In this document: positions 33,815 to 63,410 of the stretch, in pieces
Numbering within the stretch: position 1 is the first letter of the stretch
Layout of the letters: each line of letters starts with the position of its first letter
The notes under the pieces: generated by a model
Told to the model about the DNA's origin: nothing
What the model saw: the letters and a program-made list of their open reading frames with translations, nothing else
The model's database searches: none
Assembly: GCA_016223105.1 (NCBI GenBank)
Contig: JACRPR010000072.1
Coordinates: 7,982 to 71,981 of the forward strand
Length of the DNA stretch: 64,000 bases
Direction: 5' to 3'
Source: Chloroflexota bacterium
Lineage (GTDB): Bacteria > Chloroflexota > Anaerolineae > UBA4142
Made by a program: the position numbers and the translations under genes

Positions 33815-33855
33815 TCACGCATCACGCATTACGTTTTACGCATTACGTTTTACGC
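33815..33855 (-). repeat. ACGTTTT/GATGCGT composite element abutting the GT2 stop codon
   Basis: TCACGCATCACGCATTACGTTTTACGCATTACGTTTTACGC. The gene stop (33850-33852) lies inside it. Confidence 0.7.
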
Positions 33856-34803
33856 TTCCTCATCGCGCGGTTTCGGCGGGGCTTCACTCACGATGTAAAG
33901 CGGACGATTTTTCACCTCGTCGTAAATCCGTCCCAGGTATTCGCCGATGATGCCGAGGAAAATTAATTGCACGCCGCCGAGAAACAGAATCGCGATGATC
34001 GAAGTCGCTTCGCCATAAAACGCATTGTTGCCGGAAAGCCGCAGAGCGATGACGACCGGAATGGTAAGGAGCGCGATGCCGGAAATCCAAAAGCCAATCG
34101 TCGTCGCGAGTTGAAGCGGGATGTACGAAAAGCCGGTGATCGCGTCGGTCGCGAATTTGAGCATTTTGCGAAACGGATATTGCGTCGTGCCGGCAAAACG
34201 TTCCTGGCGCACGTACTGAATCCCGGTTTGTTTGAATCCAACCCACACCGACAAGCCGCGCATAAAGCGATGATGCTCGCGCAATTTTCGCATCGCCAAA
34301 ACAACCTTGCGATCAATCAAGCGAAAATCGCCGGTGTCCGGCGGAATATCAATCGAAGAAAGTTTGCGAATCAGCCGATAAAAAATCGAAGCGGTGAAAA
34401 GTTTGAACCAGGTTTCGCCTTCGCGCTTGGCGCGTTGCGCGTACACCAACTCGAATCCGGTTTTCCATTTCGCGATCATTTCTAAAATCACTTCGGGCGG
34501 GTCTTGCAAATCGGAATCTATGATCGCGACGGCATCGCCTTCCGCGTAATCAATCCCGGCGGTGATCGCGATCTGGTGCGAAAAGTTGCGCGAGAAGACG
34601 ACGCACTTGACGCGCGGATCGTACGCGTGCAGTTCGCGCCCAATCGCCGGCGAACGATCGCGACTGCCGTCAAAAACCAGGACGAGTTCGCACGCGCCGT
34701 CAAGTTGATCCATCACCGCGCGCGTGCGGCGATAAAATTCCGGGAGCGTGGCTTCCTCATTAAAGACGGGCGCGACAATGGAGTAACGAGGTCGGTTTGG
34801 CAT
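33850..34803 (-). CDS. GT2 polyprenol-phosphate glycosyltransferase (Ppm1/GtrB/ArnC-like)
   Basis: [16 protein letters not shown] and [10 protein letters not shown] (DxD) motifs. Two C-terminal TM helices. Confidence 0.8.
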
Positions 34804-34810
34804 AGGTCGT

Positions 34811-34957
34811 TTGGAAATTGGAAATTAGAAATTGGAAGTTGGAAGACGTGATACGTGATGCGTGATAATCTCACGCATCACGCATCACGTTTTACGTTTT
34901 ACGTTTTACGTTTTACGTTTTACGTTTTACGTTTTACGCTTTACGCTTTACGTTTTA
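34811..34957 (-). repeat. Composite intercistronic element: (ACGTTTT)x10 tandem, a GATGCGT-word hairpin and TTGGAAA words
   Basis: Ten 7-nt units at 34887-34956. Hairpin ACGTGATACGTGATGCGTGA-taatc-TCACGCATCACGCATCACGT at 34846-34890. TTGGAAATTGGAAATTAGAAATTGGAAGTTGGAAG at 34811-34845. The substrate-binding-protein stop at 34955 lies within it. Confidence 0.85.
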
Positions 34958-36889
34958 CTTGATCGTCCAACTTTCCGCGTAGAACGGAATGTATTTGCCT
35001 TCGTTCACATCATAGTACGTGAACGGCGGATAGAGCGCATTGCTCAAGACCGCGCCGCTTGCCATGATGTTGTCCGTCGAATAGAGATTGTAATTCGCTT
35101 TCGGTGGTTGCACGTACGGGTACGAGGTCTTGAATTCTTTCGCGCGATTCGTCGCGCTCGGTTTGAGTTGACCGCTCAAGAGCTGGCGCGCGACCGGCGA
35201 ATTGTTCTGATTGTTTTTGTAAATCTTGTCGTCCACCGGCAACCAACCGGTCACCCGCGTCTTGGTGTCAATCGGATCGGTGAGGTAGCGTTCGAACATC
35301 ATCAAGACGGGCAAACTGTCGTTGAAGAACGATGCGACATCGGCGATGTAGGGTTTTTGTTTTTCCGCGTCAAACCCTTCCGCCATCTTGTCCACCCATT
35401 CCTTGATGTTGATCTCTTTGCCATCCGCGGTTTTTTGCTTGAACGGCAAGTTGATGCCGCGTTCGCCTTCGTTGCCTTCGGGATTGTTTTTCCAACCCGC
35501 GCTCACCACACCCGGGCGCAAGTTGTAATCGAAGGAAACGTACGGGTGAAAGTACGTAAAGCGGAAACCAATGTCCATCGAAATTTGATACTTGCCGGCT
35601 TTGTGGAGGTTGGTGCGTTCGGACGATTGGTACGGCTTGACCGTGATCTTGATGCCGAACTTGGTTAATTGTTGCGCGACGTTTTCGGACGACGCGAGGT
35701 ATTCGGTGAAATCGGCGGGCACGCTCAATTCAAATTCCAGTTTCTTGCCCTTGTCATCCACCCAAATGCCATCCGCGCCTTTTTTGAAATTGAGCCCAGT
35801 CAACAACGCTTCGGCTTTTTTCACATCCGCATCGTACGTGTTGAGTTTGGCAAGTTGCGCGGCGGAAAGCCAGGTCGGCACTGCGGCATCGGTAAAGCCG
35901 GCTTCGTACTTGACCGGGCGGCACGCATCGCCGAACGCAACCTTGCAATTTTCAACGCGATCAATCGCGTACGCGAATGCCTGGCGCACTTCTTTTTTGT
36001 TCAGCGGATAGACATCGTTGTTAAAGTACATCCCGGGTCCGTTCGTCCCAGGTCCGCCGAGCACGACCATGTGATTGCCGACCGCGCGAATCGCTTGCAA
36101 ATTCGCGGGGCTGTACGCGTTCGAGGAATAGTCCATATCGTTCGAGAGATACAATGGCATATCCTGAACGGTGTCGCCCCAGTACACGGTAACTTTGTCG
36201 AAATCAATCTTGTCCGCGTTGAACCCGGACGCGTTCTTGACCATCGTGAATTGCGCTTCGGTAACTTGTTTCGGATCAATGTTGAACGGACCGTAGACGA
36301 TCGCGCTCGGCGGGCGGAACGCGTTCATTTCGTCGAGCGTTTTGGTTACGTCCGCGCTTTTGCGGTCAGTGTTATTTTTGCGAAAACCGGCGGCGGCGTC
36401 CATCCATTTGCCGTACTGCGCGTACGGACGCGTGACGGTCGCGCGCACAATCGTGTCGAGAATCGCGGGACCGGGGGTTTTGATCGTGAACTCGACGGTC
36501 GCGTCATCTTTCGCGACGACATCGTTCAGCGCGTTCCAGGTCGAGCTGGTTTGCATCCACAAAATGTTGTACGTGCCGACGACATCTTTCGAGCTGAACG
36601 CGGAGCCGTCGCTCCATTTCATGCCCTTGCGAAGATTGATCGTGATCGTTGTAACGCCGGGCGCGGCGGGTTTAGTTGGCTCTGCCGGTTTCGTGGCAAC
36701 CGGCGCGGTCGTCGCCGCGGGCTTGGTGGGTTCCGGTGCTTTGGTTGCCGGCACCGCGGTCGGCGGCACCGCCGCCGTTGGTTTCGGCGCGTCGGTCGGT
36801 TTAGGCGCGGGCGTCGGCGTTGGCGCGGCGCACGCGACGAGCGCGACAAGCGCGATCAGCAATGTGAGCGCGAGCAAAATCTTTTTCAT
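34955..36889 (-). CDS. ABC transporter substrate-binding lipoprotein, family 5 (peptide/nickel/oligosaccharide type)
   Basis: Lipobox LVAC followed by a ~60-aa Pro/Thr/Ala tether. Family-5 body (INLRKGMKWSDGSAFSSKDVV...). Confidence 0.8.
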   Translation of the reverse strand: MKKILLALTLLIALVALVACAAPTPTPAPKPTDAPKPTAAVPPTAVPATKAPEPTKPAATTAPVATKPAEPTKPAAPGVTTITINLRKGMKWSDGSAFSSKDVVGTYNILWMQTSSTWNALNDVVAKDDATVEFTIKTPGPAILDTIVRATVTRPYAQYGKWMDAAAGFRKNNTDRKSADVTKTLDEMNAFRPPSAIVYGPFNIDPKQVTEAQFTMVKNASGFNADKIDFDKVTVYWGDTVQDMPLYLSNDMDYSSNAYSPANLQAIRAVGNHMVVLGGPGTNGPGMYFNNDVYPLNKKEVRQAFAYAIDRVENCKVAFGDACRPVKYEAGFTDAAVPTWLSAAQLAKLNTYDADVKKAEALLTGLNFKKGADGIWVDDKGKKLEFELSVPADFTEYLASSENVAQQLTKFGIKITVKPYQSSERTNLHKAGKYQISMDIGFRFTYFHPYVSFDYNLRPGVVSAGWKNNPEGNEGERGINLPFKQKTADGKEINIKEWVDKMAEGFDAEKQKPYIADVASFFNDSLPVLMMFERYLTDPIDTKTRVTGWLPVDDKIYKNNQNNSPVARQLLSGQLKPSATNRAKEFKTSYPYVQPPKANYNLYSTDNIMASGAVLSNALYPPFTYYDVNEGKYIPFYAESWTIK

Positions 36890-36905
36890 TTTCTTCTCCT
36901 CCGAA

Positions 36906-36960
36906 TTAGTTGGATAGTTGAATTGTTGAATTGTTGGATAGTTGGATAGTTGTTGGTTGA
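36906..36960 (+). repeat. One-armed word run (GGATAGTT/GAATTGTT words)
   Basis: TTAGTTGGATAGTTGAATTGTTGAATTGTTGGATAGTTGGATAGTTGTTGGTTGA. Confidence 0.7.
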
Positions 36961-36983
36961 ATCACCTCCTTGTGATTTATTTT

Positions 36984-37166: not shown

Positions 37167-37172
37167 TGTTGC

Positions 37173-37227
37173 TGATGCGTGATGCGTGAAAATTATTCAC
37201 GCATCACGTTTTACGTTTTGCGATTTA
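37173..37227 (-). repeat. ACGTTTT/GATGCGT composite element abutting the ATPase stop codon
   Basis: TGATGCGTGATGCGTGAA-aatta-TTCACGCATCACG followed by TTTTACGTTTTGCGATTTA. The stop at 37211-37213 lies inside it. Confidence 0.8.
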
Positions 37228-38203
37228 CCAAGTGACACGCGACACGCGCGCCATTCGCCTCGAGCAATCCCGGCACATTCTGCTCGCACACCGCGCCGAT
37301 GAATTGCGGACAGCGCGGATGAAACGCGCAACCCGTCGGCAGACGCAAGAGACTCGGCACATCCATACTGCGTAGTTCGATGTGCTTTTTGCGCCGCGTC
37401 ACTTCGGGGTCGGCTTCCGGGATCGCGGAAAGCAAAACCTGGGTGTACGGATGTTGCGGTCGTTCGACCAGGTCGCGCGCCGGCGCGAGTTCGACGAGTC
37501 GTCCCAGGTACATTACGCCGATGCGCCCTTCCCACGCAAAGTATTTCGCGAGCGCGAGATCGTGCGTGATGAACAATACCGCCAGCCCCATCGCGTCTTT
37601 GAGTTTCGTCAACGTGTTGAGCAAACTGATCCGAATCGAAACATCCACCATCGAAACGGCTTCGTCCGCGATGATGAACGACGGCGCGACCGTGAGCGCG
37701 CGCGCGATCGAAACGCGTTGGCGTTGTCCGCCGGAAAGTTGATGCGGAAATTTTTCGAGGTAATCGTCCGGCGGCGTGAGGTCAACGCGCGCGAGCAATT
37801 CGCGCACGCGTTCGCGCGTCGCCGCGTCGCCGCGCGTGAAACCGTGATGGCGCAGTGGCGCGGCGATAATATCGGCAATCGTGTGCGTCGGATTCAGCGA
37901 GGCGTACGGATCCTGGTGAATCATTTGCACGCCAAGCCGGTATTGTTTGCGATCATCGCCGCGCAAGTTCGCGATGTTTTGATTGCGAAACAAAATTTCG
38001 CCGGACGATACCGGCAAAACGCCCGCGATCATTTTGCCGGTCGTCGTTTTGCCGCATCCCGATTCGCCGACGAGACACACAATCTCGCCTTCGCGAATCG
38101 CGAGCGACACATCGTCCACCGCCTTGATCGTTTGGCGTTTGACGGCGAACGTGCGCGTAACGTGGTTGAGGGTGAGAATGGGGTTGGACATTGGATTATG
38201 CAA
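37211..38203 (-). CDS. ABC transporter ATP-binding protein (OppF/DppF-like)
   Basis: Walker A GESGCGKTT, signature LSGGQRQR, Walker B IIADEAVS, C-terminal oligopeptide-type extension. The start is TTG 38203 or ATG 38191. Confidence 0.85.
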   Translation of the reverse strand: MHNPMSNPILTLNHVTRTFAVKRQTIKAVDDVSLAIREGEIVCLVGESGCGKTTTGKMIAGVLPVSSGEILFRNQNIANLRGDDRKQYRLGVQMIHQDPYASLNPTHTIADIIAAPLRHHGFTRGDAATRERVRELLARVDLTPPDDYLEKFPHQLSGGQRQRVSIARALTVAPSFIIADEAVSMVDVSIRISLLNTLTKLKDAMGLAVLFITHDLALAKYFAWEGRIGVMYLGRLVELAPARDLVERPQHPYTQVLLSAIPEADPEVTRRKKHIELRSMDVPSLLRLPTGCAFHPRCPQFIGAVCEQNVPGLLEANGARVACHLVNRKT

Positions 38204-38902: not shown

Positions 38903-39880
38903 TCATGTCGTACGCCAATTCCAACACGCGACGCGATGCCCGCTCGCAATCTCTTCCAGTTCCGGCTCATCGCGTTTGCACCGCGCGTCCGCGCGCGGAC
39001 AGCGCGGATGAAATTTACACCCGCTTGGCAATTCGATCAAGTCCGGCGGCGAACCTGGGATCGAAGTCAAATCTTCTTTCGCGCCTTGAAGCGTCGGCAC
39101 CGCGTTGATCAAGCCAATCGTGTACGGATGCGCGGGCGTTTTGAACGTCGTCGTAACATCTGCAAATTCGACGATTTTGCCGGCGTACACCGTCGCGACA
39201 CGATCGGCGAGTTCGGCGGCGAGCGACAAATCGTGCGAAATAAAAATCAACGAGAAATCGAGTTTGCCGCGCAATTCTTTCAGCACGTCCATAATATTGC
39301 GTTGCGTCAGAATGTCGAGCGCGGTCGTCGGCTCATCGAGAATCAAGAGTTGCGGTTCGAGCAGTAAGCCGAGCGCGATCAGCACGCGTTGCCGCATGCC
39401 GCCGGACAATTCGTGCGGAAACGATTTCCACACGCGTTCCGGATCGAGCCGGACGAGCGTGAGCAAATGTTCCGCGCGTTCTTTCAGCGCGCGCCCTTGC
39501 AAATAGTTATGCGCGCGCGCCGTGTCGCCGAATTGATCCGCGATGCGTAAAACCGGGTTGAGCGAGTTGAGCGCGGATTGAAACACCATCGCGCACTCTT
39601 TCCAACGAAACTCGCGGAGGGCTTTGCCCTTCAGCGTGAGCGCGTCAATCGTTTTATTGTCGCGATGATACAGCGCATTGCCCTGCGTGATCTTCGCGGT
39701 ACTCGGAAGCAATTGCACCACGCCCAAGCCGAGCGTCGTTTTGCCGGAACCGCTTTCGCCGATCAGCGCGAGCGCATCGCCACGCGCAACGTCGAAGGAC
39801 ACGTTGCGAATCGCGCGCACCTTGCCGCGCCGCGCGGCGTATTCGATGGATAAATTTTGAACAGATAAAGTTGGAGGCAT
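38903..39880 (-). CDS. ABC transporter ATP-binding protein (OppD/DppD-like)
   Basis: ATG 39880; the upstream extension is repeat-encoded. Walker A GESGSGKTT, signature LSGGMRQR, Walker B LILDEPTT. Confidence 0.85.
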   Translation of the reverse strand: MPPTLSVQNLSIEYAARRGKVRAIRNVSFDVARGDALALIGESGSGKTTLGLGVVQLLPSTAKITQGNALYHRDNKTIDALTLKGKALREFRWKECAMVFQSALNSLNPVLRIADQFGDTARAHNYLQGRALKERAEHLLTLVRLDPERVWKSFPHELSGGMRQRVLIALGLLLEPQLLILDEPTTALDILTQRNIMDVLKELRGKLDFSLIFISHDLSLAAELADRVATVYAGKIVEFADVTTTFKTPAHPYTIGLINAVPTLQGAKEDLTSIPGSPPDLIELPSGCKFHPRCPRADARCKRDEPELEEIASGHRVACWNWRTT

Positions 39881-39968
39881 AGTTGGATGGTTGGATAGTT
39901 GGGTAGTTGGGTAGTTGAATAGTTGCGTGGTTGGAAGAATTATCCAACTATCCAACTATTCAACTATC
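39880..39968. repeat. Word-repeat hairpin (GGATAGTT/GGGTAGTT words)
   Basis: ATAGTTGGATGGTTGGATAGTTGGGTAGTTGGGTAGTTGAATAGTTG ... TTATCCAACTATCCAACTATTCAACTATC. Confidence 0.75.
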
Positions 39969-42549: not shown

Positions 42550-42625
42550 TATGGGACGCGGATGAGCGCGGAGGAACGCGGATAAAAAAGAATAATCCGC
42601 GTTCGTCCGCGTTTGTCCGCGTCCA
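42550..42625. repeat. Family R ~76-bp hairpin element (copy 1 of 3)
   Basis: TATGGGACGCGGATGAGCGCGGAGGAACGCGGATAAAAAAGAATAATCCGCGTTCGTCCGCGTTTGTCCGCGTCCA. Confidence 0.85.
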
Positions 42626-44484: not shown

Positions 44485-44496
44485 AGTTCGAGTGGG

Positions 44497-44557
44497 TAGT
44501 AAACAGTGAACAGTCTACGCACGACTGATCACTGTTTACTGTTTACTGTTGACTGAC
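44497..44557. repeat. Word-repeat hairpin (CAGTAAA/CAGTGAA words)
   Basis: GTAGTAAACAGTGAACAGTC-tacgcac-GACTGATCACTGTTTACTGTTTACTGTTGACTGAC. Confidence 0.75.
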
Positions 44558-46212
44558 TATTTGTCGAGCCAGGTTTCGCGCAGGTACGTGTTCGCGCCGT
44601 TCGCCAGCGGCACAAAGCCCTTGACGTACGATTGCATCACACGATACTCGTAGCCGACGTACAGCCACACCCAGGGCACGGCGTCCGCAAGTTTCTTTTG
44701 AATGTTGTCGTAAATCTCTTTGCGTTTCGCCGGGTCAGCGGTGACGCGACCTTGTTCCAACAACTTGTCAATTTCCGGGTCTTTGTAATTCGCGACCAGG
44801 TTCAAGTTGCCGGTGCTGTGCCAATAGCGGAAGAACATGATGTCGGGATCGGGATTGCCACCGTTGAGCGCGACCGTCGCATCGAAATCGCCCTTGAGCC
44901 AGCGATCCACATACACGCCCAGCTCGAGCGATTCGATTTCCGATTCGATGCCGATCTTTTTCAATTGCGCTTGAATGTTTTGCGCTTCGGCGAGCGCGGT
45001 CGGCGGTTCAGCATTCGCCGCCATAATTTTGAATTTCACGGTTGGATTACCGGCATCCGCCAACAATTTTTTCGCGCGATCCATGTCTTTGGTGTAGCAG
45101 AACAAATCTTTTTGCGCGGTGCGATAGAACGGCGGCGTCGCGGGCGAAGTAACTTCACCTTCACCGAGCGACGCGACATCGAGAACTTCTTGACGATCAA
45201 TCGCGCACGACACGGCTTGGCGCACCTTAACATCTTCGAACATCGCGCGCGACGCGTTCAATTGCAAAACGTGATACGCGAGAGCGGGCGCGCGCGTGAT
45301 CGTAAGACCGCTTCCGCCTGCGCCGGCGCGAATGCCGACGCGCGGATCGTTGATCAACGCCCAGTCAATCGTTTTCGCGCGCAAGCCGGCGAGAATGCTC
45401 GCTTCATCTGGGATTGTGCGGAACTCGATGCCCGCGAGACGCGGTTGACCTGGGATCCAATAATCCTTGTTCGCGTCGAGTTTCAAAATTTTGTCCGGTT
45501 GCCAATCCGCGATCTTGAACGCGCCGGTGCCATTCGAAACTTTTGCCGGGTCTTGTCCGCCGCTCACTGCTTTGCGCGAAAGGATCGCGCTGTTGAGCAA
45601 CGTCATCGACGCGGGCAACGCGCCGTTCGCGGTTTTCAGCGTGAACACGACCGTGCTCGCGTCCGGCGTTTCGATCTTGTCAATCAGCGCGTAATTCGCG
45701 CGCGCCGCCGCGCCGGTTTTTTCATCGAGGATGCGCTCGAATGAAAATTTCACATCGTCCGAAGTCATCGCATCGCCGTTGTGAAATTTCACATTCTTGC
45801 GAAGCGTCATCGTGAGCGTCTTGCCATCTTCGGACCACTTCCACGATTCGGCGAGATGCGGAACGACTTTCATATCTTTGTCGAGCGTCACGAGCGGATC
45901 ATAAATCAACTCGAGCACGCGGAACGACGCGAACGCGGTTTGTTTGTGCGGGTCTAGCCCGGTCATATCCGTCGCGCGCGCCGCGAACAGGATGCCGCCG
46001 GTTTTCGGCGCGGCAGTCGGCGCGGGCGTAACCGTAACAACTTTTTCGACGACTTTGGTTTGTTCGACGACCGTCGTCGCTTGCACGACGCGCGTTTGTT
46101 CGACAACTTTGGTTTGCACGACCGGCGCGGGCGCGGTCGGCGCGGCGCACGCGATCAACATTATCGCGGCAAGCGCGAGCAGAGAAACGATCAGTGTGAT
46201 TTTGCGTAACAT
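44557..46212 (-). CDS. ABC transporter substrate-binding lipoprotein, family 5, second system
   Basis: ATG 46212 with GGAGGAG RBS. Lipobox LIAC. Repetitive tether QTKVVEQTRVVQATTVVEQTKVVEKVV. Family-5 body. Confidence 0.8.
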   Translation of the reverse strand: MLRKITLIVSLLALAAIMLIACAAPTAPAPVVQTKVVEQTRVVQATTVVEQTKVVEKVVTVTPAPTAAPKTGGILFAARATDMTGLDPHKQTAFASFRVLELIYDPLVTLDKDMKVVPHLAESWKWSEDGKTLTMTLRKNVKFHNGDAMTSDDVKFSFERILDEKTGAAARANYALIDKIETPDASTVVFTLKTANGALPASMTLLNSAILSRKAVSGGQDPAKVSNGTGAFKIADWQPDKILKLDANKDYWIPGQPRLAGIEFRTIPDEASILAGLRAKTIDWALINDPRVGIRAGAGGSGLTITRAPALAYHVLQLNASRAMFEDVKVRQAVSCAIDRQEVLDVASLGEGEVTSPATPPFYRTAQKDLFCYTKDMDRAKKLLADAGNPTVKFKIMAANAEPPTALAEAQNIQAQLKKIGIESEIESLELGVYVDRWLKGDFDATVALNGGNPDPDIMFFRYWHSTGNLNLVANYKDPEIDKLLEQGRVTADPAKRKEIYDNIQKKLADAVPWVWLYVGYEYRVMQSYVKGFVPLANGANTYLRETWLDK

Positions 46213-46353
46213 TTTATCTCCTCCTGGAATCCAATCTGAACGATTGACCGAGCAAAGGTCGGGGTAGCCATCCTCCTTTCGATTTTTTATCCGCGAACCC
46301 TGGCACTTGCGTTCCCGCCAGGGCAAGTGTAACGCGAATCTCCGCGAATTTTT

Positions 46354-46430
46354 TATGGGACGTAGATGAACGCAGATGAACGCAGATTTTTTCTTCTTAT
46401 CCGCGTTCGTCCGCGTTTGTCCGCGTCCCA
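46354..46430. repeat. Family R hairpin element (copy 2 of 3)
   Basis: TATGGGACGTAGATGAACGCAGATGAACGCAGATTTTTTCTTCTTATCCGCGTTCGTCCGCGTTTGTCCGCGTCCCA. Confidence 0.85.
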
Positions 46431-48074: not shown

Positions 48075-48102
48075 AATTGCCAATTACCAATTACCGATTG
48101 CC
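48075..48102 (+). repeat. CAATTAC-type word run supplying the stop codon of anmK::murQ
   Basis: GAATTGCCAATTACCAATTACCGATTGCC. On the minus strand it reads ...GGC AAT CGG TAA (GNR*). Confidence 0.7.
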
Positions 48103-50151
48103 CAACGCGCCGCGCACCGAACCACCCGCCGCGCGCAAACGTCGCCGCGCGTCGTCCGCCGAAACACGCGCGAGCGCGATCACAATCGCGGTCTTCACTT
48201 CGCCGTCCGCGCGCGCGAGCAATTGCTCCGCCTCGTCCTCCGCGATGCGCGCCGCGGTCGCGACGATGCGCCGCGCGCGGTCGCGCAGTTTCACATTCGT
48301 CGCTTGCACATCCACCATCAAATTGCCGAACGTTTTGCCAAGCCGGATCATTACGCCGGTGCTGAGTTTGTTCAGCACCAATTTTTGCGCGGTGCCGGAT
48401 TTCATCCGCGTCGAACCGGCGATCACTTCGGGCCCGACGAGCGGCGCGATGTTGATCTGCGCGACATCCTGGATCGGCGCGGGGCGATTGCACGCGACCG
48501 AGATCGTCAGCGCGCCGCGCGCGTGCGCTTCGATCAACGCGCCGATCACATACGGCGTGCGCCCGCTCGCCGCGAGCCCGACGACCGAATCGCGCGCGGA
48601 CACATTCAAATTCGCGAGATCGAGTTTGCCTTGCTCCGCGTCATCCTCCGCGCCTTCAATCGAACGCGTGATCGCCGCGTTGCCGCCCGCGATGATCGCG
48701 ATCACTTGATCGGGGCGCGTGCTAAATGTCGGCGGCATTTCCGACGCGTCGAGCACACCGAGCCGCCCCGACGTGCCTGCGCCGATGTAAATCAACCGAC
48801 CACCCGCGCGCATCCGTTCCGCAATCGCGTCCACCGCTTGCGCGATGTGCGGCAGTTCAACCGCAACCGCGTGCGCGACGCGTTGATCTTCCGCGTTGAT
48901 GCGCCGCAACATTTCGAGCGTGGACAACGTATCAATCTCCGCTGTCGCGGGGTTGTGCGCTTCGGTGAAGTTGGAGGTTGGATGTTCGATGTTGGAAGTT
49001 GGACGCGCGCCGGGGGTGATGTTGCCGAGAATGACCGGATGCCGCGCGCCGGTTGCCGCGGGGACATTGCCGGCGCGCTGAAACCAGGTCTCGTGCGCGA
49101 GAATCGCGAACGCGAGCGCTTCTTTCGCTTCGCTCGCGACGCCCAGCTCATCAATAGCGATCACGCGCGCGGGCGCGAGCAAATCGCGCAGAATTTGCAT
49201 CAAGGTTCGATTCAACGCGCCGCCGCCGGAAACGATCACCTCGTCCACGCGCGTCGGCAGAAAATCGCGATACGCTTGCGCGATCGAGTGCGCGGTGAAC
49301 GCGGTGAGCGTCGCGATAATGTCGTGATCGGAAATGCCGCGCGCTTTTGCGCGCTCCCACACCGGCGCGCCGAATTGCGCGCCGAACAATTCGCGCCCGG
49401 TTGTTTTTGGCGGCGATTGTTGCAAGTACGGTTCGTTCATCAACTCGCGCAAGAGTTGATCATTCACGCGACCTTGCGCGGCGAGCGCGCCATCGCGATC
49501 AAATGTTTGCGCGCCATTCGTCGCGCGTTGCGTCGCGTAATCAATCAGCATATTGCCGGGACCGGTGTCGAACGCGAATGGCGGTAGGGGCGACGCATGC
49601 GTCGCCCCTACCGGCGGCAAATACGTCACATTCCCAATGCCGCCAATGTTCTGCGCGGCGCGCGTCAAAACGGGATGCGCGAACAATATCACGTCGAGGT
49701 GCGGCACGAGCGGCGCGCCTTGTCCGCCCGCCGCCATATCGCGCGTGCGAAAATTTGAAATCGTCGTGATGCCAGTGCGCTCCGCGATCACCGCCGGTTC
49801 GCCGAGTTGCATTGTGGACGCGTCCTTGCCTTCGGGAATATGCCACAGCGTTTGACCGTGACTGCCGATGAGATCGACCTGGTCCGGTTGCAGTTGCGCG
49901 CGCGCGATCACATCGAGCGCGGCGCGCGCGAACGCTTCGCCGAGTTGAAAGTTGAGCGCGCACAAACGATCCACCGTGCCGTGCGCGGGGCGAAAGCACG
50001 CGAGAATTTCGTCGCGCAACGCGGGATCGAAATGCGCGTGATGATGCGCGCGCAGTTTCCATTCGAGCGCGGGCGGTGCGCCGGTAATTTCGACGACGAC
50101 GGCATCAATGCCATCTGCGGATGTGCCTGAAATCATTCCAACGACAAGCAT
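48091..50151 (-). CDS. anmK-murQ: AnmK::MurQ fusion: anhydro-N-acetylmuramic acid kinase fused to N-acetylmuramic acid-6-phosphate etherase
   Basis: A single 686-codon frame. N-terminus [18 protein letters not shown] (AnmK). C-terminal SIS domain [25 protein letters not shown] (MurQ). The linker is repeat-encoded. Confidence 0.85.
48967..49003 (+). repeat. GGAAGTT/GGATGTT word run forming the AnmK-MurQ linker
   Basis: GAAGTTGGAGGTTGGATGTTCGATGTTGGAAGTTGGA, translated on the minus strand as [13 protein letters not shown]. Confidence 0.8.
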
Positions 50152-56036: not shown

Positions 56037-56059
56037 CTCTGTAGTTGCATAGTGAAATA

Positions 56060-56119
56060 GTTCGATAGTGCGATAGTTAAAAACTATCGCACTATCGAAC
56101 TAGGAAACTATCGCACTAT
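56060..56119. repeat. Word-repeat hairpin (CGATAGTG words) between the liv substrate-binding-protein gene and livH
   Basis: GTTCGATAGTGCGATAGTT-aaaa-AACTATCGCACTATCGAAC followed by TAGGAAACTATCGCACTAT. Confidence 0.8.
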
Positions 56120-57507
56120 TTGCGAAGTTGTCCGTCCGCCGATTTGGCTTCGAGCGGCCAAACGATGTTCGTGATCAATTTGCCGGCAGAATCTTTCTGC
56201 CACTGCATATAAACCATATCGTGCGCGGTCTGCTTGCCGTGCGTCTTGGCATCGGTGCTGAATTTGACGACGCCGTAGAACGTCATCAAGTTCATCTTGT
56301 CGAGCGCGGCGACAATTTTCGCGGGATCAACACTGTCCGCATCTTCAATCGCTTTTTGGAGAATCAAACCCTGAGCGTAACCGCCGGCGGAGTGGTACGA
56401 CGGCGTATCTTTGTATTTCGCGACGTACGCGTCGGTGAACGCTTTGACACTCACACCATAGTAGGGGATGTTCGCGGCTTTGGCGGATTCCGCGCTGTAC
56501 GTCACTTGGGGTTCCCACTGGCTGGGTCCGATGATGTACTGCGCGGCATCGCCGATATCTTTAAAGGTCGGTTCCGGCGGCGCGACGAGCAAAGAGACAA
56601 AGCGCACCGGAATCTTTTTCTCGTAAAGTTGTTTGGCGAAGGTCGTGCCATCGGCAAAGTGACCGCCGCCCAAAATCGCGTCGGGGTTGGTCGCGCTGAT
56701 CTTGTTGATGAACGGAGAGAAATCGGTCGCGCCGGTATCGTACCCCTCGAACATCACGACGTTCAACCCTTTGCTTTCCGCGTACGGTTTCAGCGCGTTC
56801 GCGACCGAGGTCGAGAAGGCATCTTTTTCGTACACGATCGCGATCTTTTTCGCGGTCGGGTCAATCTTCATCAACATATCTGCCGCGCCGGTGAGATAGC
56901 GACTCGCGGGCGTGTACAATTGGAACGTGTTCTTGAAACCTTGTTCCATCGTTACATCGTCCGCCGCGCCGGCGGTGATCATCACTTTGCCGTTCTGTTC
57001 ACCGACGACTGCCGCGGCGCGCGCGAGACCGCTACTGTATGGGCTGAGGAGGAAATCGGCTTTGTCTTCGTTGATGAGTTTGGCGTAGAGCGCTTGCACG
57101 CGATCGGTCTTACTCTCATCATCGTAGAATTTCATTTCCGGCATATAGACCGTGCCGTCTTTCAACTTGATGCCGCCGGCTTTCGCCACATCATCAAGCC
57201 ACAACTGTAAACCTTCGACCTGTTTCTTTGAAGCGACTTGTTGCGCGCCGGTCTGGGATGCGGTGAAACCGATCAAAAGTTTCTTTGCCGCGACGGGTGG
57301 TTTAGTCGCGGCGGCGGGCGGCTTGGTTGCTTCAGGCGCTTTGGTCGCGGCGGCGGGCGCAGAAGTCGCGGCGACCGGCGCGGTCGTTGGCGCGGGCGCT
57401 TTGGTGGGGGGCGCGGATGTGGGTGCCGCCGTCGGCGCGGCGCACGCGGTCAGGATCAGCGCAGTCAATAGAACGCCGATCCACAACAATCGGGGAAACT
57501 TGCTCAT
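56116..57507 (-). CDS. Type-1 periplasmic-binding-fold (LivJ/K-like) substrate-binding lipoprotein
   Basis: ATG 57507 (GGAG upstream). Lipobox LTAC followed by a ~55-aa Pro/Thr/Ala tether. Confidence 0.8.
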   Translation of the reverse strand: MSKFPRLLWIGVLLTALILTACAAPTAAPTSAPPTKAPAPTTAPVAATSAPAAATKAPEATKPPAAATKPPVAAKKLLIGFTASQTGAQQVASKKQVEGLQLWLDDVAKAGGIKLKDGTVYMPEMKFYDDESKTDRVQALYAKLINEDKADFLLSPYSSGLARAAAVVGEQNGKVMITAGAADDVTMEQGFKNTFQLYTPASRYLTGAADMLMKIDPTAKKIAIVYEKDAFSTSVANALKPYAESKGLNVVMFEGYDTGATDFSPFINKISATNPDAILGGGHFADGTTFAKQLYEKKIPVRFVSLLVAPPEPTFKDIGDAAQYIIGPSQWEPQVTYSAESAKAANIPYYGVSVKAFTDAYVAKYKDTPSYHSAGGYAQGLILQKAIEDADSVDPAKIVAALDKMNLMTFYGVVKFSTDAKTHGKQTAHDMVYMQWQKDSAGKLITNIVWPLEAKSADGQLRK

Positions 57508-57673
57508 CGTCTTCTTCTCCTTTTTCTTTTCGCGCATCTTGGCGATTTTTGGAAATTCATTCCATTGGCACAGGCATTGGGTTGCGAACCCGCGTGTGGC
57601 GCAATCATCACCTCGCTGTGATTAAATTTGCAAGGAAGGCAGTGGAGACGAAAGGTTAAAATATCTTAATGCG

Positions 57674-58988: not shown

Positions 58989-59002
58989 CCAAGTGAGTTC
59001 CT

Positions 59003-59060: not shown

Positions 59061-60383
59061 TCCGCGCACTGCCGCGACCATTTTCTTCACATCCTCACTC
59101 GGTTCGGGATCGTGCACGCGCGTTGTCGGCAGAGGACCGGTCGCGGTGTAATAGTGATGACCGGCAACCATCAAATCGTTCGCCGGAAAACGCGTGATGA
59201 TTTCGTGCCCGGTTTCGGTAACGACAATTTCCTCTTCGATGCGCGCCGCGCTCCAACCATCGGTCGAGGGCCAAAAGGTTTCGAGCGCGAACACCATCCC
59301 AGGTTTCAATTCGGTGGGATGCTCGAGCGAGACGAGACGGCTGATCACCGGCTTTTCCCAAATCGCGAGACCGACGCCGTGCCCGTACTGCAACGCGAAC
59401 GCGGCTTCTTCATTCGCGAATCCAAACTCGGTGGCTTTAGGCCACACGGACGCGACTTCGCCGGTGGTGCGCCCAGGTCGAATCAATTCGATTGCCGCGT
59501 CGAGATAATCGCGGCAACGTTTGTACGCGTCCACCATCGCGCGCGACGCGTAGCCAATCGTAAAGCAACGATAGTAGCAAGTGCGATAGCCCATATACGA
59601 TTGTAATACATCGTAATACACTGGATCGCCGGGGCGCAACATTCGATCCGAAAAAACGTGCGGGTGTGGATTGCAACGTTCGCCGGAAATCGCGTTCACC
59701 GCTTCGACGTATTCCGATCCCAGGTCGTACAACACTTTACTCACGATGCCGACCGCTTCGTTCTCGCGCATCCCAGGTTTCATCGCGCGATAGAGTTCGT
59801 CGTACGCGGCATCCACTTGCGCGGCGGCGTGCGTGAGAAGCGCGATCTCGTCTACTGTTTTGATCAAGCGCGCGTCGGACATCAATTGTTGACCGTCAAC
59901 GATTTTTAATCCCTTGTTCTGCAACGCGAACAGAACCGGCACTTCGGCAATGTCCACGCCGACCGGTTCGTTTTCGAGTCCGCGCTCTTTCAACTCGACC
60001 CAGATTTTGTTCGCGACATCTTCCGCGCGTCCCATCTCCGGCGACATTGCGCCGCGCAAAAGCGAAATGCCGGGACGCGAGCGTTTTTCGCCGAGCCAGG
60101 GCGCGTAGAGTTGATGATGCTTTGCCGCCGAACCAAAATCCCACAGAATCGGCTCGTCGTCCTGCGGCAACAACGTAAAGCGATTCATTTTATCTTGCGC
60201 CCAAGTGCCGATGTGCGTCGCGGTGAGATAACGGACATTGTTCATATCGAAACACAACAGCGCACCCATCTCGGATTCTTTCAATAATTTTTTCGCGCGC
60301 GCCAATCGTTCGCGGCGCAAGCGATCAAAATCAATGCGCTGTTCCCAATCCACTTGCATTGTGCCGTAGGTTTTGATTGCCAT
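59058..60383 (-). CDS. M24-family metallopeptidase-fold protein (creatinase/prolidase-like, with a creatinase-N-type domain)
   Basis: ATG 60383 (AAGGAG RBS). Pita-bread C-terminal domain (..HGVGLAIWEKP.., ..GMVFALETF.., ..EEEIVVTETG..). Substrate not inferable. Confidence 0.7.
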   Translation of the reverse strand: MAIKTYGTMQVDWEQRIDFDRLRRERLARAKKLLKESEMGALLCFDMNNVRYLTATHIGTWAQDKMNRFTLLPQDDEPILWDFGSAAKHHQLYAPWLGEKRSRPGISLLRGAMSPEMGRAEDVANKIWVELKERGLENEPVGVDIAEVPVLFALQNKGLKIVDGQQLMSDARLIKTVDEIALLTHAAAQVDAAYDELYRAMKPGMRENEAVGIVSKVLYDLGSEYVEAVNAISGERCNPHPHVFSDRMLRPGDPVYYDVLQSYMGYRTCYYRCFTIGYASRAMVDAYKRCRDYLDAAIELIRPGRTTGEVASVWPKATEFGFANEEAAFALQYGHGVGLAIWEKPVISRLVSLEHPTELKPGMVFALETFWPSTDGWSAARIEEEIVVTETGHEIITRFPANDLMVAGHHYYTATGPLPTTRVHDPEPSEDVKKMVAAVRG

Positions 60384-60393
60384 TGTAAACTCC

Positions 60394-60750
60394 TTATCGT
60401 ATTTCTGCTTTATGGAAATAGAATGGTTTGCAAACATTCAAGAGTTGTTGAACTTGGTGTGTCGAGACAAAAACAATATCGAGGTGTTCGTGTGTCCCGA
60501 ACATTGAACTAAAAATTTTCCAGATTTGTTTTGCGATTTCCTCATCAGCACCGGTCGGGACATCCAAACACAAAGCGATGCTGTACGTTTTTGCATCATC
60601 GTACGAGACAATAGCGAGAAACGCTGTCTTTATTTTATCATTCTTTTTGAACAAATTGATGAACTTGGTCTTTAATTGGCGTTCTGGAACACCATCTTGC
60701 TCACCTAAAAATTGGATTTGTGGAACATTAAAATTGTCTAACGGTGACAT
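60394..60750 (-). CDS. Hypothetical protein, conspicuously AT-rich ORF (possibly SseB-C-like)
   Basis: ATG 60750 with AAGGAG RBS. 118 aa. By eye it is much more AT-rich than its neighbours. The pattern KTAFLAIVSYDD...YSIALCLDV...LDIVFV...CKPFY is weakly reminiscent of SseB C-terminal domains. Confidence 0.4.
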   Translation of the reverse strand: MSPLDNFNVPQIQFLGEQDGVPERQLKTKFINLFKKNDKIKTAFLAIVSYDDAKTYSIALCLDVPTGADEEIAKQIWKIFSSMFGTHEHLDIVFVSTHQVQQLLNVCKPFYFHKAEIR

Positions 60751-60757
60751 TGGATTT

Positions 60758-61195
60758 TTACTCCTTGACTTTTTCCCACACCAATTGCCCCACTGCTTCC
60801 GCGCCGGCAAGGATCAATGGCGACGTTCGCAACGTGAGACGATTGCCGGAAAATTCGTAAAAACGCACCAGGTCAATGCCGACCCAGTTCGGATGCCACG
60901 CGCCTTCGATGTGATGCGTTACCGTGTGTTTATCCGCGTCAAGCGTGTACGTGCCAAAGTAACCGAGGTAGCCGCGAAACGCGGTCTGAGTCTCGTGCGG
61001 CGCACCACTCAAACGATCGCCGGTCGCAAACAGCGGACGATCACGGCGCATAATTTGCACCGCCATATTTCCATCCGCATCGTAAATAATCCGCCCGGTT
61101 GGATTCACGCCGTACATATCAATAACCTCGCCGTTCGCGCGACGATAATCGGCGGAAATCAATTTCCAGGTTCCGATAAATTTATCGTTCGACAT
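60758..61195 (-). CDS. Lipocalin-like domain protein
   Basis: ATG 61195. FIGTWKLIS...NPTGRIIYDADGNMAVQIM...YLGYFGTYTLD pattern of bacterial lipocalin-like domains. Confidence 0.6.
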   Translation of the reverse strand: MSNDKFIGTWKLISADYRRANGEVIDMYGVNPTGRIIYDADGNMAVQIMRRDRPLFATGDRLSGAPHETQTAFRGYLGYFGTYTLDADKHTVTHHIEGAWHPNWVGIDLVRFYEFSGNRLTLRTSPLILAGAEAVGQLVWEKVKE

Positions 61196-61210
61196 TCGCA
61201 ACTCCAATTG

Positions 61211-61285
61211 TAATGCGTGATGCGTGATGCGTGATGCGTGAACCTCACGAATCACGCATCACGTTTTACGTTTTACGTTTTACGA
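61211..61285 (-). repeat. ACGTTTT/GATGCGT composite element abutting the E1-beta stop codon
   Basis: TAATGCGTGATGCGTGATGCGTGATGCGTGA-acc-TCACGAATCACGCATCACG followed by (TTTTACG)x3. The stop at 61280-61282 lies inside it. Confidence 0.85.
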
Positions 61286-62266
61286 TTTCCCGCAGAGCAT
61301 ACGCGCCATTTCAAAAACTGTTTGCTCCGTCGGCACCGTTACATCTTCGAGCGTGGGCGAAAATGGCACCGGCACATTCAGTGCACCCATTCGTTTGACC
61401 GGCGCGTCGAGATAGTAAAACGCGCCTTCCGCGATGACCGACGCGATTTCGGCGGTGACACCGTACTGCTCGTACCCTTCGTCAATCACAATCGCGCGCG
61501 AAGTTTTTTTCGCGGACTCGATACAAGTTTTTTTATCGAGCGGCAACGTCGTGCGCGGATCGATCACCTCCGCGCCGATACCGATTTGCGCGAGCATCTC
61601 CGCCGCGCCGAGCGCGACCTGCACCATCGAACTTGTCGCGACGAGCGTGATGTCACTGCCCGCGCGTTTCACATCGGCAACGCCGAACGGAATCGTGTAA
61701 TCATCCGTCGGTACAACACCTTTCATTTTGAACATCATCTTGTCTTCAAAAAAAACGACCGGGTTGTTATCGCGAATCGCGGTTTTCAGCAAACCCTTGG
61801 CATCGTACGGCGTTGATGGAATCGCGACTTTCAACCCAGGAATGTGGCTGACCCACGCGTGCAAACTTTGCGAGTGTTGCGCCGCCGAGCGTCGCGTCGC
61901 GCCCATCGTCGTGCGAAACACCATCGGCACATTCAGTTTGCCGCCGGACATGTAATGCACTTTGGCGGCTTGGTTCGCGATTTGATCCATCGCCAGTGTG
62001 AGAAAATCGCCGAACATTAAATCCACAACCGGGCGCATCCCGGTCATCGCCGCGCCAACGCCGATGCCGGAAAAACCAGGTTCAGAAATCGGCGTGTCAA
62101 TCACGCGCGCTGTGCCAAACTCTTCGACCAAGCCGGATAAAACTTTGAACGGCGTTCCCGCTTCGGCGACATCTTCGCCGAAGATGAACACGCGCGCATC
62201 GCGCCGCATCTCCTCCGCGAGCGCTTCGCGGATCGCTTCGGCAAACGTGATTTCGCGATCAGACAT
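61280..62266 (-). CDS. 2-oxoacid dehydrogenase E1 component, beta subunit
   Basis: 328 aa. VFIFGEDV...GTARVIDTPISEPGFSGIGVGAAMTGMRPVV transketolase-like pyrimidine-binding domain. Confidence 0.9.
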   Translation of the reverse strand: MSDREITFAEAIREALAEEMRRDARVFIFGEDVAEAGTPFKVLSGLVEEFGTARVIDTPISEPGFSGIGVGAAMTGMRPVVDLMFGDFLTLAMDQIANQAAKVHYMSGGKLNVPMVFRTTMGATRRSAAQHSQSLHAWVSHIPGLKVAIPSTPYDAKGLLKTAIRDNNPVVFFEDKMMFKMKGVVPTDDYTIPFGVADVKRAGSDITLVATSSMVQVALGAAEMLAQIGIGAEVIDPRTTLPLDKKTCIESAKKTSRAIVIDEGYEQYGVTAEIASVIAEGAFYYLDAPVKRMGALNVPVPFSPTLEDVTVPTEQTVFEMARMLCGKS

Positions 62267-62288
62267 TGCGTTCTCCAGACAACGGATT

Positions 62289-62364
62289 TATGGGACGCGG
62301 ACAAACGCGGATGAACGCGGATAATTTTCTCTTGTCCATGTTTGTCCGTGTTAATCCGCGTCCA
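62289..62364. repeat. Family R hairpin element (copy 3 of 3) between E1 alpha and E1 beta
   Basis: TATGGGACGCGGACAAACGCGGATGAACGCGGATAATTTTCTCTTGTCCATGTTTGTCCGTGTTAATCCGCGTCCA. Confidence 0.85.
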
Positions 62365-62373
62365 ATTTTATTT

Positions 62374-63345
62374 TTACGCATACACATCTTCATCCACCTC
62401 GCGCGCATCCGGGAACGGCGCATCGAGCGCGAACGCGACGCCGGCTTCGACTTCCGCGTTCACATCCGCTTCAATGCGTTCAAGCACGCTTGCATCGGTC
62501 AGTTTTTGCGCGATAAGACGCGTCGAGAGAATTTTAAGCGGGTCGCGATTCGTCATCCATTCGCGTTCTTCTTCTTTCGCGCGATAGTACGCGCGATTAA
62601 TGTCGCCGACGTGATGTCCATAATAGCGATACGTGTCGCACTGCAAAAACGCCGGACCTTCACCGCGCCGCGCGCGTTCGACGAGCTTTTGCATCGCCAT
62701 GAAAACCGCGTGCACATCTTGACCGTCCACGATTTCCGCGCGCATCCCAAACGTTTGCGCGCGCGCGATAAATTCACCGGCGGCAGTTTCGGTGTGATGC
62801 GTGTACTCGCCGTACAAATTATTTTCGCAGACGTAAATCACCGGCAATTTCCACAACGCCGCCATGTTCGCAACTTCGTAAAACAATCCTTGCCCCAACG
62901 CGCCATCGCCAAAAAAGCATACGGCGACCTGCCCACTGCGCCGCATCTTTGCCGACATTGCCGCGCCCGTCGCGATGCCCATGCTTCCACCGACAATCGC
63001 GTTCGCGCCCAGGTTGCCGGAATCTGGGTCGGCGATGTGCATCGAGCCGCCCTTGCCGCGACAATAGCCGGCTTCTTTGCCGAGCAATTCCGCGAACATG
63101 CGATCCACGCGCGCGCCTTTCGCGAGACAGTGCCCATGCCCGCGATGTGTGCTGGTGATGTAATCGTCGCGATCGAGTGCCTCGCACACGCCGACGGCAA
63201 CCGCTTCCTCGCCGGAATACAGATGCGCGAGTCCCGGCATTTTCGCGCTCTTGTACAGTTCGTTCACTTTTTCTTCAAACGCGCGAATCTTTGCCATTTG
63301 TTGATACATCTGCAAAGATTGTTCGAGGTCTATGTGTTCGGTCAT
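62374..63345 (-). CDS. 2-oxoacid dehydrogenase E1 component, alpha subunit (TPP-binding)
   Basis: 323 aa. YSGEEAVAVG...HRGHGH...GDGALGQGLFYEVANMAALWKLPVIYVCENN TPP motif. Confidence 0.9.
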   Translation of the reverse strand: MTEHIDLEQSLQMYQQMAKIRAFEEKVNELYKSAKMPGLAHLYSGEEAVAVGVCEALDRDDYITSTHRGHGHCLAKGARVDRMFAELLGKEAGYCRGKGGSMHIADPDSGNLGANAIVGGSMGIATGAAMSAKMRRSGQVAVCFFGDGALGQGLFYEVANMAALWKLPVIYVCENNLYGEYTHHTETAAGEFIARAQTFGMRAEIVDGQDVHAVFMAMQKLVERARRGEGPAFLQCDTYRYYGHHVGDINRAYYRAKEEEREWMTNRDPLKILSTRLIAQKLTDASVLERIEADVNAEVEAGVAFALDAPFPDAREVDEDVYA

Positions 63346-63356
63346 TCGTTGACTCC

Positions 63357-63410
63357 AAAACGTAAAGCGTAAAACGTGAAACGTAATTGCGCTTTACGTT
63401 TTACGTTTTA
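63357..63410 (-). repeat. ACGTTTT-word hairpin abutting the stop codon of the dehydrogenase gene
   Basis: AAAACGTAAAGCGTAAAACGTGAAACGTAA-ttgc-GCTTTACGTTTTACGTTTTAT. The stop at 63408-63410 lies inside it. Confidence 0.8.

Follow-up and report, generated by a model that had tools for sequence, protein, structure and literature searches.

Short tandem arrays at stop codons, in a riboswitch loop and in protein linkers of a Chloroflexota genome

Several families of tandem heptamers, the STRR sequences of cyanobacteria (CCCCAGT, TTGGTCA and, in STRR3, CAACAGT), are dispersed between the genes of filamentous bacteria. Rickettsia palindromic elements (RPE) are conserved mobile elements of 100-150 bp that are tolerated in frame in genes and in structured RNAs. 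Here we describe the short tandem arrays of a 64-kb stretch of contig JACRPR010000072.1 (the window), which belongs to a Chloroflexi metagenome-assembled genome (MAG) and is the single region of the source genome that was surveyed. At five sites in the window, arrays of the heptamers ACGTTTT and GATGCGT lie on the stop codons of minus-strand genes, and an earlier note on this DNA had read them as a dedicated mRNA element. ACGTTTT/GATGCGT is one word family among at least ten in the window, and we consider it probable that the five sites belong to a slippage-driven class of tandem arrays, with units of 7-10 nt, that extends through the genome and largely through the phylum. The words of the window differ from those of the STRR families, the nearest, (AAACAGT)n, being one base away from STRR3, and the host belongs to the Chloroflexota. 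To our knowledge, hairpin-arm architecture, stop-codon overlap and in-frame coding copies are not part of the STRR description. Like RPE, the window arrays have copies in frame in genes and in a structured RNA, but the in-frame pieces are heptamer arrays that give 7-residue peptide repeats in linkers.

Heptamers are the commonest unit of long simple-sequence repeats in bacteria (Mrazek 2007, as summarised in PMC4679880), and the window arrays share the features of such repeats, namely head-to-tail copies of a short unit (5-11 nt in this class) in runs too long for chance, change in unit number and a mainly intergenic position. The heptamers GGGAATC of Xanthomonas and GGGGAYT of Nostoc strongly favour intergenic positions between co-directional open reading frames (ORFs), often lie at most 50 nt from stops or overlap them, sometimes occur as inverted pairs and are transcribed (Rehm et al. 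2015, PMC4692102); heptanucleotides of Calothrix are cited in the same paper. The window arrays resemble them in their 7-nt units, their intergenic position in co-directional gaps close to stops and the inversion of some copies. However, their words are not G-rich and cannot form quadruplexes, they are mostly inverted with long perfect stems, they use many words and periods (7-10 nt), and they reach a far higher density (40% of junctions) in a host from the Chloroflexota. The TAACTGA repeats of marine Beggiatoaceae, Cyanobacteria and Bacteroidetes are a case of one heptamer that occurs across phyla with no evident transfer mechanism (MacGregor 2015, PMC4679880). They are similar to the arrays described here in that the word is common to distant phyla and lies between cistrons next to translation signals, but they are mostly direct, stand just before start codons and have one main word, whereas the window arrays are mostly inverted, begin at stops and are made of many words. 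The REP, BIME and REPIN sequences of gamma-proteobacteria are palindromes outside genes, located close to gene 3' ends in the spacers of operons and folding in the mRNA (PMC3116915); they consist of conserved 20-40-nt units with a fixed sequence per genome and a RAYT transposase, whereas the stems in the window consist of tandem 7-10-nt units and are all different. In the phylum itself, the dispersed (GATAGRA)n of Chloroflexus aurantiacus was the largest bacterial short-repeat family in one survey (Subirana and Messeguer 2019, PMC6749651). It is likewise a dispersed heptamer, although the word differs, and the survey gave no gene position, hairpin pairing or coding copies. This satellite survey was the only literature on Chloroflexota repeat hairpins that we found. 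In the literature found, we did not see described the hairpin-arm architecture, the many word families and periods, the 40% occupancy, the frame rule set out below, or the copies in a riboswitch loop and in coding linkers.

The five sites and the other arrays of the window

Tandem arrays were listed by Tandem Repeats Finder, protein domains in the window were assigned by Pfam and RNA families by Rfam covariance models. Sixteen matches to (ACGTTTT)2 with at most one mismatch were found in the window, all of them at the five places listed in Table 1, whereas shuffled sequences are expected to give 0.06. The five sites of the earlier note are thus real, and so is its copy of about ten heptamers (10.3 copies, 96% match, at 34887-34958). 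At each site the array overlaps the TAA stop of a minus-strand ORF with a clear Pfam domain, with the same polarity relative to the gene, as the note had stated; the first TAA of the array is the in-frame stop at four of the five. The common polarity is not independent evidence, since about 85% of the window genes lie on the minus strand and the two-sided probability of the observation under 50:50 is 0.06.

The run and the hairpin described in the earlier note are not separate modules. All units at the sites form one unbroken period-7 array of the form T-R-A-N-R-C-G (TAAAACG, TAAAGCG, TAATGCG, TGATGCG, TGAAACG), in which every unit retains a CG and a T-R-A core. A strong hairpin does follow the run at sites 2-5 (z -2.8 to -8.0); no significant one folds at site 1 (z -1.0), where the run itself is an alternation of TAAAACG and TAATGCG rather than a pure repeat. 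The next cistron comes directly after the element at sites 2, 4 and 5; at site 1 it is preceded by 169 nt containing another dispersed repeat, and at site 3 by 321 nt that include a promoter-like site with 11 of 12 positions matching. Over the five sites the stem lies between 0 and about 70 nt from the stop, and the stems at sites 2-5 are unlike in unit order, unit number and loop. Sites 2, 3 and 4 have in common an exact 23-mer, AAAACGTAAAACGTGATGCGTGA, which joins run and hairpin. The leader downstream of site 2 is filled by (TTCCAAN)5, a separate word family of the same array class, and no evident Shine-Dalgarno motif was found between this array and the GT2 start at 34803.

Table 1. Arrays and array hairpins in the window (folding in kcal/mol, with z score)
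Feature	Position	Strand	Units and form	Gene context	Folding
Site 1 array	33815..33858	-	mixed: TAAAACG, TAATGCG, TAAAACG, TAATGCG, TGATGCG, TGAAACC	GT2 glycosyltransferase gene (33850..34803); stop TAA 33850-33852 is the first unit of the array	-15.3, z -1.0 (stem not significant)
Site 2 run	34887..34958	-	10.3 TAAAACG/TAAAGCG units	SBP_bac_5 gene (34955..36889); stop TAA 34955-34957 is the first TAA of the run	-48.6, z -8.0 (region)
Site 2 hairpin	34846..34889	-	20-bp stem, (GUGAUGC)n against (GCAUCAC)n; one G:U pair, in the mRNA sense		-36.4 (stem)
(TTCCAAN)5 array	34811..34844	-		between the site 2 hairpin and the GT2 ATG (34803)	
Site 3	37173..37228	-	TAAATCG, CAAAACG, TAAAACG; 13-bp GUGAUGC hairpin at 37173-37209 after the stop	OppF-like ATPase gene (37211..38203); units encode the final residues VNRKT plus the stop (37211-37213)	-22.3, z -5.7
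Site 4	61211..61288	-	(TAAAACG)3, GUGAUGC-word hairpin, GGAG, ATG of a lipocalin-like gene	E1 beta gene (61280..62266); (TAAAACG)3 begins at its stop TAA 61280-61282	-33.6, z -4.9
Site 5 hairpin	63357..63410	-	5' arm (TAAAACG)2 TAAAGCG; 3' arm (CGUUUYA)4, directly adjoined by GGAG of E1 alpha	3-hydroxyisobutyrate dehydrogenase gene (63408..); stop TAA 63408-63410 is the first unit	-20.3, z -2.8
Decamer (ACGCGGAYRA)n hairpin	62295..62352	-		between E1 alpha and E1 beta	
Octamer (TAGTTCGA/TAGTGCGA)n hairpin	56057..56119	-		first unit gives the TAG stop of the Peripla_BP_6 gene (56116)	
(TAAACAG/TGATCAG)n hairpin	44485..44556	-		starts at the TAG stop of the SBP gene 44557..46326	
(TAGTTGGA)n/(TCCAACTA)n hairpin	17403..17476	-		in the P3 loop of a SAM riboswitch	
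In-frame arrays in the GT39 gene	18476..18564	-	(TTTCAGA)4, then TTACGCATCACGCATTACGGATTAC, then (TTTTTAC)n		
(TCCAACN)n array	48970..49003	-		in frame, encodes the AnmK-MurQ inter-domain linker (ORF 48091..50151)	

At least ten word families of tandem arrays, with periods of 7, 8, 9 and 10 nt, are present in the window, and dozens of arrays with periods 7, 8 and 10 were listed. Their words include CAGTAAA, CAGATTT, TTGGAAA, AAGGATG, TAGTTCGA, TAGTTGGA, GCGAATCAC, CACAGAATCA and ACGCGGATGA. Some families recur: (ACGCGGAYRA)n at 42556-42622 and 46360-46426, TAAACAG/TGATCAG at 2576-2655 (+) and 15521-15565, and TAGTTGGA at 36907-36952 and 39879-39968. The usual form is a pair of inverted arrays that form a stem of 13-24 bp; most of the longer inter-cistronic gaps fold to hairpins with such arms, and ribosome-binding sites stay free just 3' of the stems. 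Apart from the in-frame linker copies described below, most arrays of period 7, 8 or 10 lie in gaps. They occupy 17 of the 43 co-directional junctions of the window (about 40%); the share is 13% for other genomes with the 23-mer and 2-3% for loci with an E1 beta orthologue. In the 23-mer-carrying genomes they are also found in 7% of convergent and 12% of divergent gaps. An array starts within 60 nt of 22 of the 56 gene stops of the window, within 6 nt of 13, and overlaps the stop itself at seven. Words that supply a stop include TAATTGG and TAGTTCGA; the AnmK-MurQ gene and gene 56116..57537 have stops overlapped by (GGTAATT)n and (CGATAGTT)n, respectively. Near stops, the stop triplet is contained in the sense unit 8 times and in the antisense unit 2 times. 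The arrays are not random one-off expansions, and the earlier note was correct on this point; they lie within transcribed inter-cistronic spacers.

At 34811-34844, 13771-13798, 27291-27322 and 36907-36952, leaders are filled by G-poor arrays such as (TTCCAAN)n and (CTATCCAA)n, read in the sense of the downstream gene, which extend as far as the start codon or the ribosome-binding site. A second dispersed repeat, GGAGTCGAGCGTTTACGCGGT...ACCCGCTGAAGCGTCGAATCC, is about 60 nt long, with complementary ends and at least six copies in 64 kb; its core GAGCGTTTACGCGG or the reverse complement is found at 9479, 10258, 13860, 28065, 33760 and 47906, with one copy between site 1 and the GH3 gene and one nested within the (GCGAATCAC)n hairpin at 27982-28142. 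A (GTTGGAA)3 array at 5653-5673 is located at the junction that follows ORF 3341-5650 (+), whose 769 residues join NosD and NosF-like ABC-ATPase domains in one chain. This ORF belongs to a nos-type cluster with an N2O-reductase-like propeller/cupredoxin protein, NosD/F, an ABC-2 permease, NosL and cytochrome c.

Orthologous junctions and other genomes

A scan of metagenomes with E1 beta gave 80 orthologous loci. One of them, the relative L116, is syntenic with 59756-63895 of the window at 85-88% nucleotide identity and carries arrays at all three comparable junctions. At site 5 it has the same hairpin with 4+3 units in place of the 3+4 units of the window. At the E1 beta stop (site 4), where the window has the TAAAACG/TGATGCG composite, a direct array of TAATTCG/CAATTCG units starts from the same TAA, and between E1 alpha and E1 beta the decamer hairpin of the window is replaced by (CAATTCG)4 starting at the TGA stop. 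Further words occupy the E1 beta junction in the array-bearing loci L119, L122, L140, L149 and L156, and many lineages have there a tight, array-free spacer with only a Shine-Dalgarno motif. The position of the E1 beta stop is the same in array-free orthologues (…LCGK[AS]*); therefore, the array starts at the ancestral stop and the protein is not truncated. These comparisons show that arrays persist for a long time at a site while unit number and word change, the change in unit number being drawn from one comparison, that of the window with L116. Such persistence with change is consistent with concerted evolution, in which replication slippage is coupled to homogenisation along the array.

The exact 23-mer was searched for in species-representative genomes (596 Gb, both strands), where about 0.02 matches are expected by chance according to our own estimate. 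At least 114 stretches from other genomes contain it, most of them from Chloroflexota MAGs. Among the matches listed, the Chloroflexota were represented by Anaerolineae, Caldilineaceae, Ardenticatenaceae, Chloroflexia and Thermoflexus, and other phyla by Myroides phaeus DSM 23313 and by MAGs of Poribacteria, Latescibacteria, Verrucomicrobiae and Bacteroidetes. In these other genomes AAAACGT units often lie within the stem itself. Since the loci were picked by their 23-mer content, a census of word frequencies across them carries no information. No match to the exact 23-mer was found in viral contigs (IMG/VR); (ACGTTTT)3 occurs in 10 IMG/VR viral contigs (L196-L205).

Forty of the listed copies belong to two larger dispersed repeats in two MAGs. 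Among loci L002-L115, those of MAG W31_78 (e.g. L005 at about 2964, reverse strand) have the 23-mer within a dispersed repeat of about 260 nt with 26 copies among the loci, in which a small palindrome, GTAATCCACCGAAAT...ATTTCGGTGGATTAC, is nested in the loop of a T-R-A-N-R-C-G hairpin; in MAG M_MetaBat.175 another dispersed-repeat family contains it, with 14 copies among the loci. With these 40 copies set aside, 76 independent copies remained among the matches listed, in genomes whose genes were called crudely from long ORFs and GC content by codon position, so the following counts are approximate. In about 24 of the 76 a sense gene ends at or in the array, as in the window; in about 18 of these the array contains the stop, and in about 8 (roughly 8-10 of 18) its first unit is the stop. 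About 17 have the opposite orientation between co-directional genes, in the order stop, hairpin, (ACGUUUU)n, Shine-Dalgarno motif and start, and Pfam confirmed five of them, such as hemCD with hemB after it in L090. Both orientations occur in these genomes (about 24 against about 17), and the element therefore has no fixed polarity, contrary to the earlier note. In the window, polarity is inseparable from the minus-strand bias of the genes.

An independent assembly covers one stretch of the window. The Logan contig SRR12113407_1855372 (L001), 1025 nt long, is 100% identical to 33819-34843 of the window and terminates within arrays at both of its ends; arrays therefore break short-read assemblies. 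When strain variation was sought through the identical GT2 protein, only this contig of about 1 kb, identical to the window, was recovered, and a search through the identical E1 beta and SBP proteins gave no match.

Copies in structured RNA and in coding sequence

A SAM riboswitch (RF00162, 74.7 bits) is located at 17352-17534 (-), upstream of an IF-2B-family gene (16256..17365). A 77-nt array hairpin takes the place of its 6-nt P3 loop, and the riboswitch measures 183 nt against 108 nt in the model. It was the sole match in the Rfam scan of the window, and the arrays match no covariance model.

The GT39 glycosyltransferase gene (17585..19903, -) is genuine and encodes 772 residues; its product is 100% identical to an NCBI Chloroflexi MAG protein, and homologues of 740-840 residues align with it over their full length. 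Heptamer and octamer arrays stand in frame at two positions in it, that of Table 1 and 19022-19092, and one of them forms a hairpin. The TTACGCATCACGCATTACGGATTAC part is a T-R-A-N-R-C-G array in the direction without stops. At both positions, homologues with 66-81% identity carry different words, such as CGAATTA, which gives ELRITNY in P0002, and CGTTTTA, which gives TFYALRF in P0013. The coding arrays give peptide periods of seven residues (FQISDFR, ELRITNY, TFYALRF) and were seen solely in the stop-free direction, for example TTACGCATCACGCAT in the window and CGTTTTA in P0013. The same gene holds, in frame, an 84-nt palindrome at 19349-19432 (-), GTCATTGCGAGG...CCTCGCAATGAC, with -50 kcal/mol, which encodes VIARSDLGDEAISTARWGLLRFARND. 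It is missing from P0002 (78% identity) and has an independent copy at the same spot in P0013, and this type of element is also seen upstream of E1 beta in L149. The gene is one of five tandem PMT_2/GT39-like membrane glycosyltransferase paralogues at 17585-27216 (-), with 19-25% identity.

A further coding copy encodes the linker of an AnmK-MurQ fusion that is conserved in many Chloroflexota homologues (674-768 residues). The linker is hypervariable in these homologues, often with a 7-residue period (PTSNFQL, ESANRRI, RTTNDEG). The idea that the array created the fusion was rejected, because the fusion is conserved across many homologues and the array merely occupies a variable linker.

Possible origin and role of the arrays

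The position of the arrays relative to the genes can be considered from the reading frame. Read as AAAACGT, the array has TAA or TGA in every unit, and three units close all three frames because the units carry these triplets and 7 is not divisible by 3. Therefore, any ORF that enters the array ends within three units, and overlap with a stop is partly automatic. The opposite reading, ACGTTTT, leaves every frame open (T-F-Y-V-L-R-F). The position exactly on the stop, with one polarity, would thus mainly be what selection lets through rather than the mark of a dedicated stop-codon device. We suppose that arrays settle in sequence free of constraint, such as spacers between stop and ribosome-binding site, leaders, the riboswitch loop and protein linkers, and that they evolve there by slippage and homogenisation, while template switching may match the two arms and give the hairpin form. 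An array in the stop-bearing direction could reach or pass a gene end and leave the protein no longer than before, and loss of unconstrained spacer would then bring array, stop and ribosome-binding site together. In the open direction it would survive solely behind an independent stop or in tolerant coding linkers.

Several points weigh against this reading. Slippage alone leaves unexplained why the same words occur at many loci, in many genomes and in different phyla, and how arrays entered a riboswitch loop and coding sequence in frame. Some process of copying or insertion, or strong convergence, is still needed to account for these points. Furthermore, the first TAA is the in-frame stop in 4 of 5 cases in the window and in about 8-10 of 18 among the copies listed elsewhere, against an expected one-third, so the arrays seem to be anchored on the stop codon in a way that is not fully explained. 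The 40% occupancy of junctions and the persistence of sites could reflect selection for stem-loops, and the 24:17 count of orientations is approximate owing to the crude gene calls. Growth of the array from the last codons of the gene, in which GCG TAA resembles a unit, fits three of the five window sites but not most copies elsewhere, so it was rejected as a general explanation.

The reading of the earlier note, a dedicated cis-acting mRNA element in which (UAAAACG)n and a hairpin are selected for 3'-end protection, processing or control of translational coupling, appears unlikely to us. The arrays do lie in transcribed operon spacers, with very stable stems at four of the five sites and unobstructed ribosome-binding sites just 3' of the stems; many stems begin 0-6 nt past the stop, a geometry that could affect the terminating ribosome; the start of the array coincides with the stop more often than by chance; and site 5 is kept in L116. 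However, the units carry stops of their own and arrays of all families abut stops, both orientations occur in other genomes, stems stand anywhere from 0 to 70 nt beyond the stop and site 1 has no stem. Words and architecture are swapped at orthologous junctions, a fast turnover, and arrays are also found in divergent and convergent gaps, in the riboswitch loop and in coding linkers. Ungapped stems downstream of stops show no strand bias, with 27 mismatches that are G:U in the sense strand against 24 that are A:C, and among 394 co-directional regions after stops in 23-mer-carrying genomes the sense fold was the stronger in 189 and the antisense fold in 188. An apparent strand bias of G:U pairs in 25 window regions (antisense 54 against 31) was dropped, as the two strands were equal in 563 regions from 23-mer-carrying loci and strict stems gave 27:24. 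The sequence data thus offer no indication that the stems are selected to act on the mRNA, and fixed position and polarity do not imply a dedicated device. Inverted arrays in transcribed spacers must nevertheless be expected to fold in the mRNA, and it is plausible that stem-loops of this kind would affect it. By analogy, the 13-24-bp stems probably act like REP-type inter-cistronic stem-loops: they may be a barrier to 3' exonucleases, a substrate of RNase III or, if the stem is near the stop, an obstacle to the terminating ribosome, and 3'-end protection, processing or decoupling is possible.

Copying of ready-made hairpins could account for some of what slippage does not. Miniature mobile palindromes (REPIN-, MITE- or RPE-like), which a transposase or some other mechanism would copy preferentially to TAA/TGA or existing hairpin loops and slippage would modify later, are an explanation that we regard as unlikely but worth keeping in view. 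Identical words at many loci and genomes, the presence of the 23-mer inside larger dispersed repeats (26 copies in W31_78, 14 in M_MetaBat.175), the arrays in the P3 loop and in frame in genes, and the clean presence or absence of the unrelated 84-nt palindrome between 78%-identical GT39 homologues are in line with it. On the other hand, loop, unit order and unit number differ at every site, unlike in families spread by cut-and-paste or copy-and-paste, the five sites showed no target-site duplications, and no transposase or RAYT domain was found among about 55 ORFs of the window, 64 kb being a small sample; the 23-mer had no match in viral contigs, and orthologous sites retain an array while its word drifts, which fits evolution in place. 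Termination of transcription was considered in both directions. In the gene direction the stems do not have the form of terminators, being preceded by an A-rich run and having no trailing U run, and canonical terminators with unique stems and U runs are present separately in the window (7492-7540, after 10410, 28125-28183 and after 52747). UUUUACGUUUU follows the stem on the opposite strand alone, where a G+C-rich hairpin and this tract could stop transcripts running against the operon; site 3 was called terminator-like on the plus strand by a simple scan (14 pairs, tail TTTACGTTTT), sites 2 and 4 share the layout and all five sites face this way. We regard such antisense terminators as very improbable, since the U tract is broken by ACG, most other word families have no U run, the genome has its separate canonical terminators, and about 17 listed copies face with the genes, their U-rich run 11-24 nt from the next Shine-Dalgarno motif or start, which leaves no room for a promoter and is difficult to square with efficient termination. 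The same distance of 11-24 nt to the next start weakened the idea that the sense-facing copies are terminators at operon ends. Finally, the arrays might be binding sites for a sequence-specific RNA- or DNA-binding protein, the words being common to phyla through a common factor, as was hypothesised earlier for the TAACTGA repeats of Beggiatoaceae (PMC4679880). The exact 23-mer in distant lineages and the CG and T-R-A core of all units are consistent with this, but at least ten unrelated word families with periods of 7-10 nt behave alike within 64 kb and would need many factors, words are replaced at orthologous junctions and both strands are used, and we give this explanation the least credence of all.

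Slippage within unconstrained sequence remains the reading that we prefer for the arrays. A bolder reading, which we regard as unlikely, is that the Chloroflexota, and sporadically other phyla, carry a hitherto undescribed kind of self-propagating "tandem-repeat palindromes" with 7-10-nt arms, seeded at stops, hairpin loops and linkers, whose words spread between loci and genomes by copying without a transposase, for example by template switching, and which would reshape operon mRNAs and linkers genome-wide.

The role and spread of heptamer repeats in bacteria have been open questions since the cyanobacterial STRRs, and this lineage is an unusually dense case, with arrays in 40% of junctions. 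It has natural experiments built in, namely arrays in a riboswitch stem, in protein linkers and changing at orthologous junctions, and the frame rule, closed one way and open the other, predicts where each orientation can survive. Myroides phaeus DSM 23313 is a cultured carrier of the 23-mer, which makes experiments feasible. Should the arrays be neutral, they would illustrate strongly how mutation can drive genome architecture, and they would be a hazard in practice, with broken assemblies, blurred calls of gene starts and odd peptide repeats. If the stems shape mRNA ends or coupling, most operons of these organisms would be affected.

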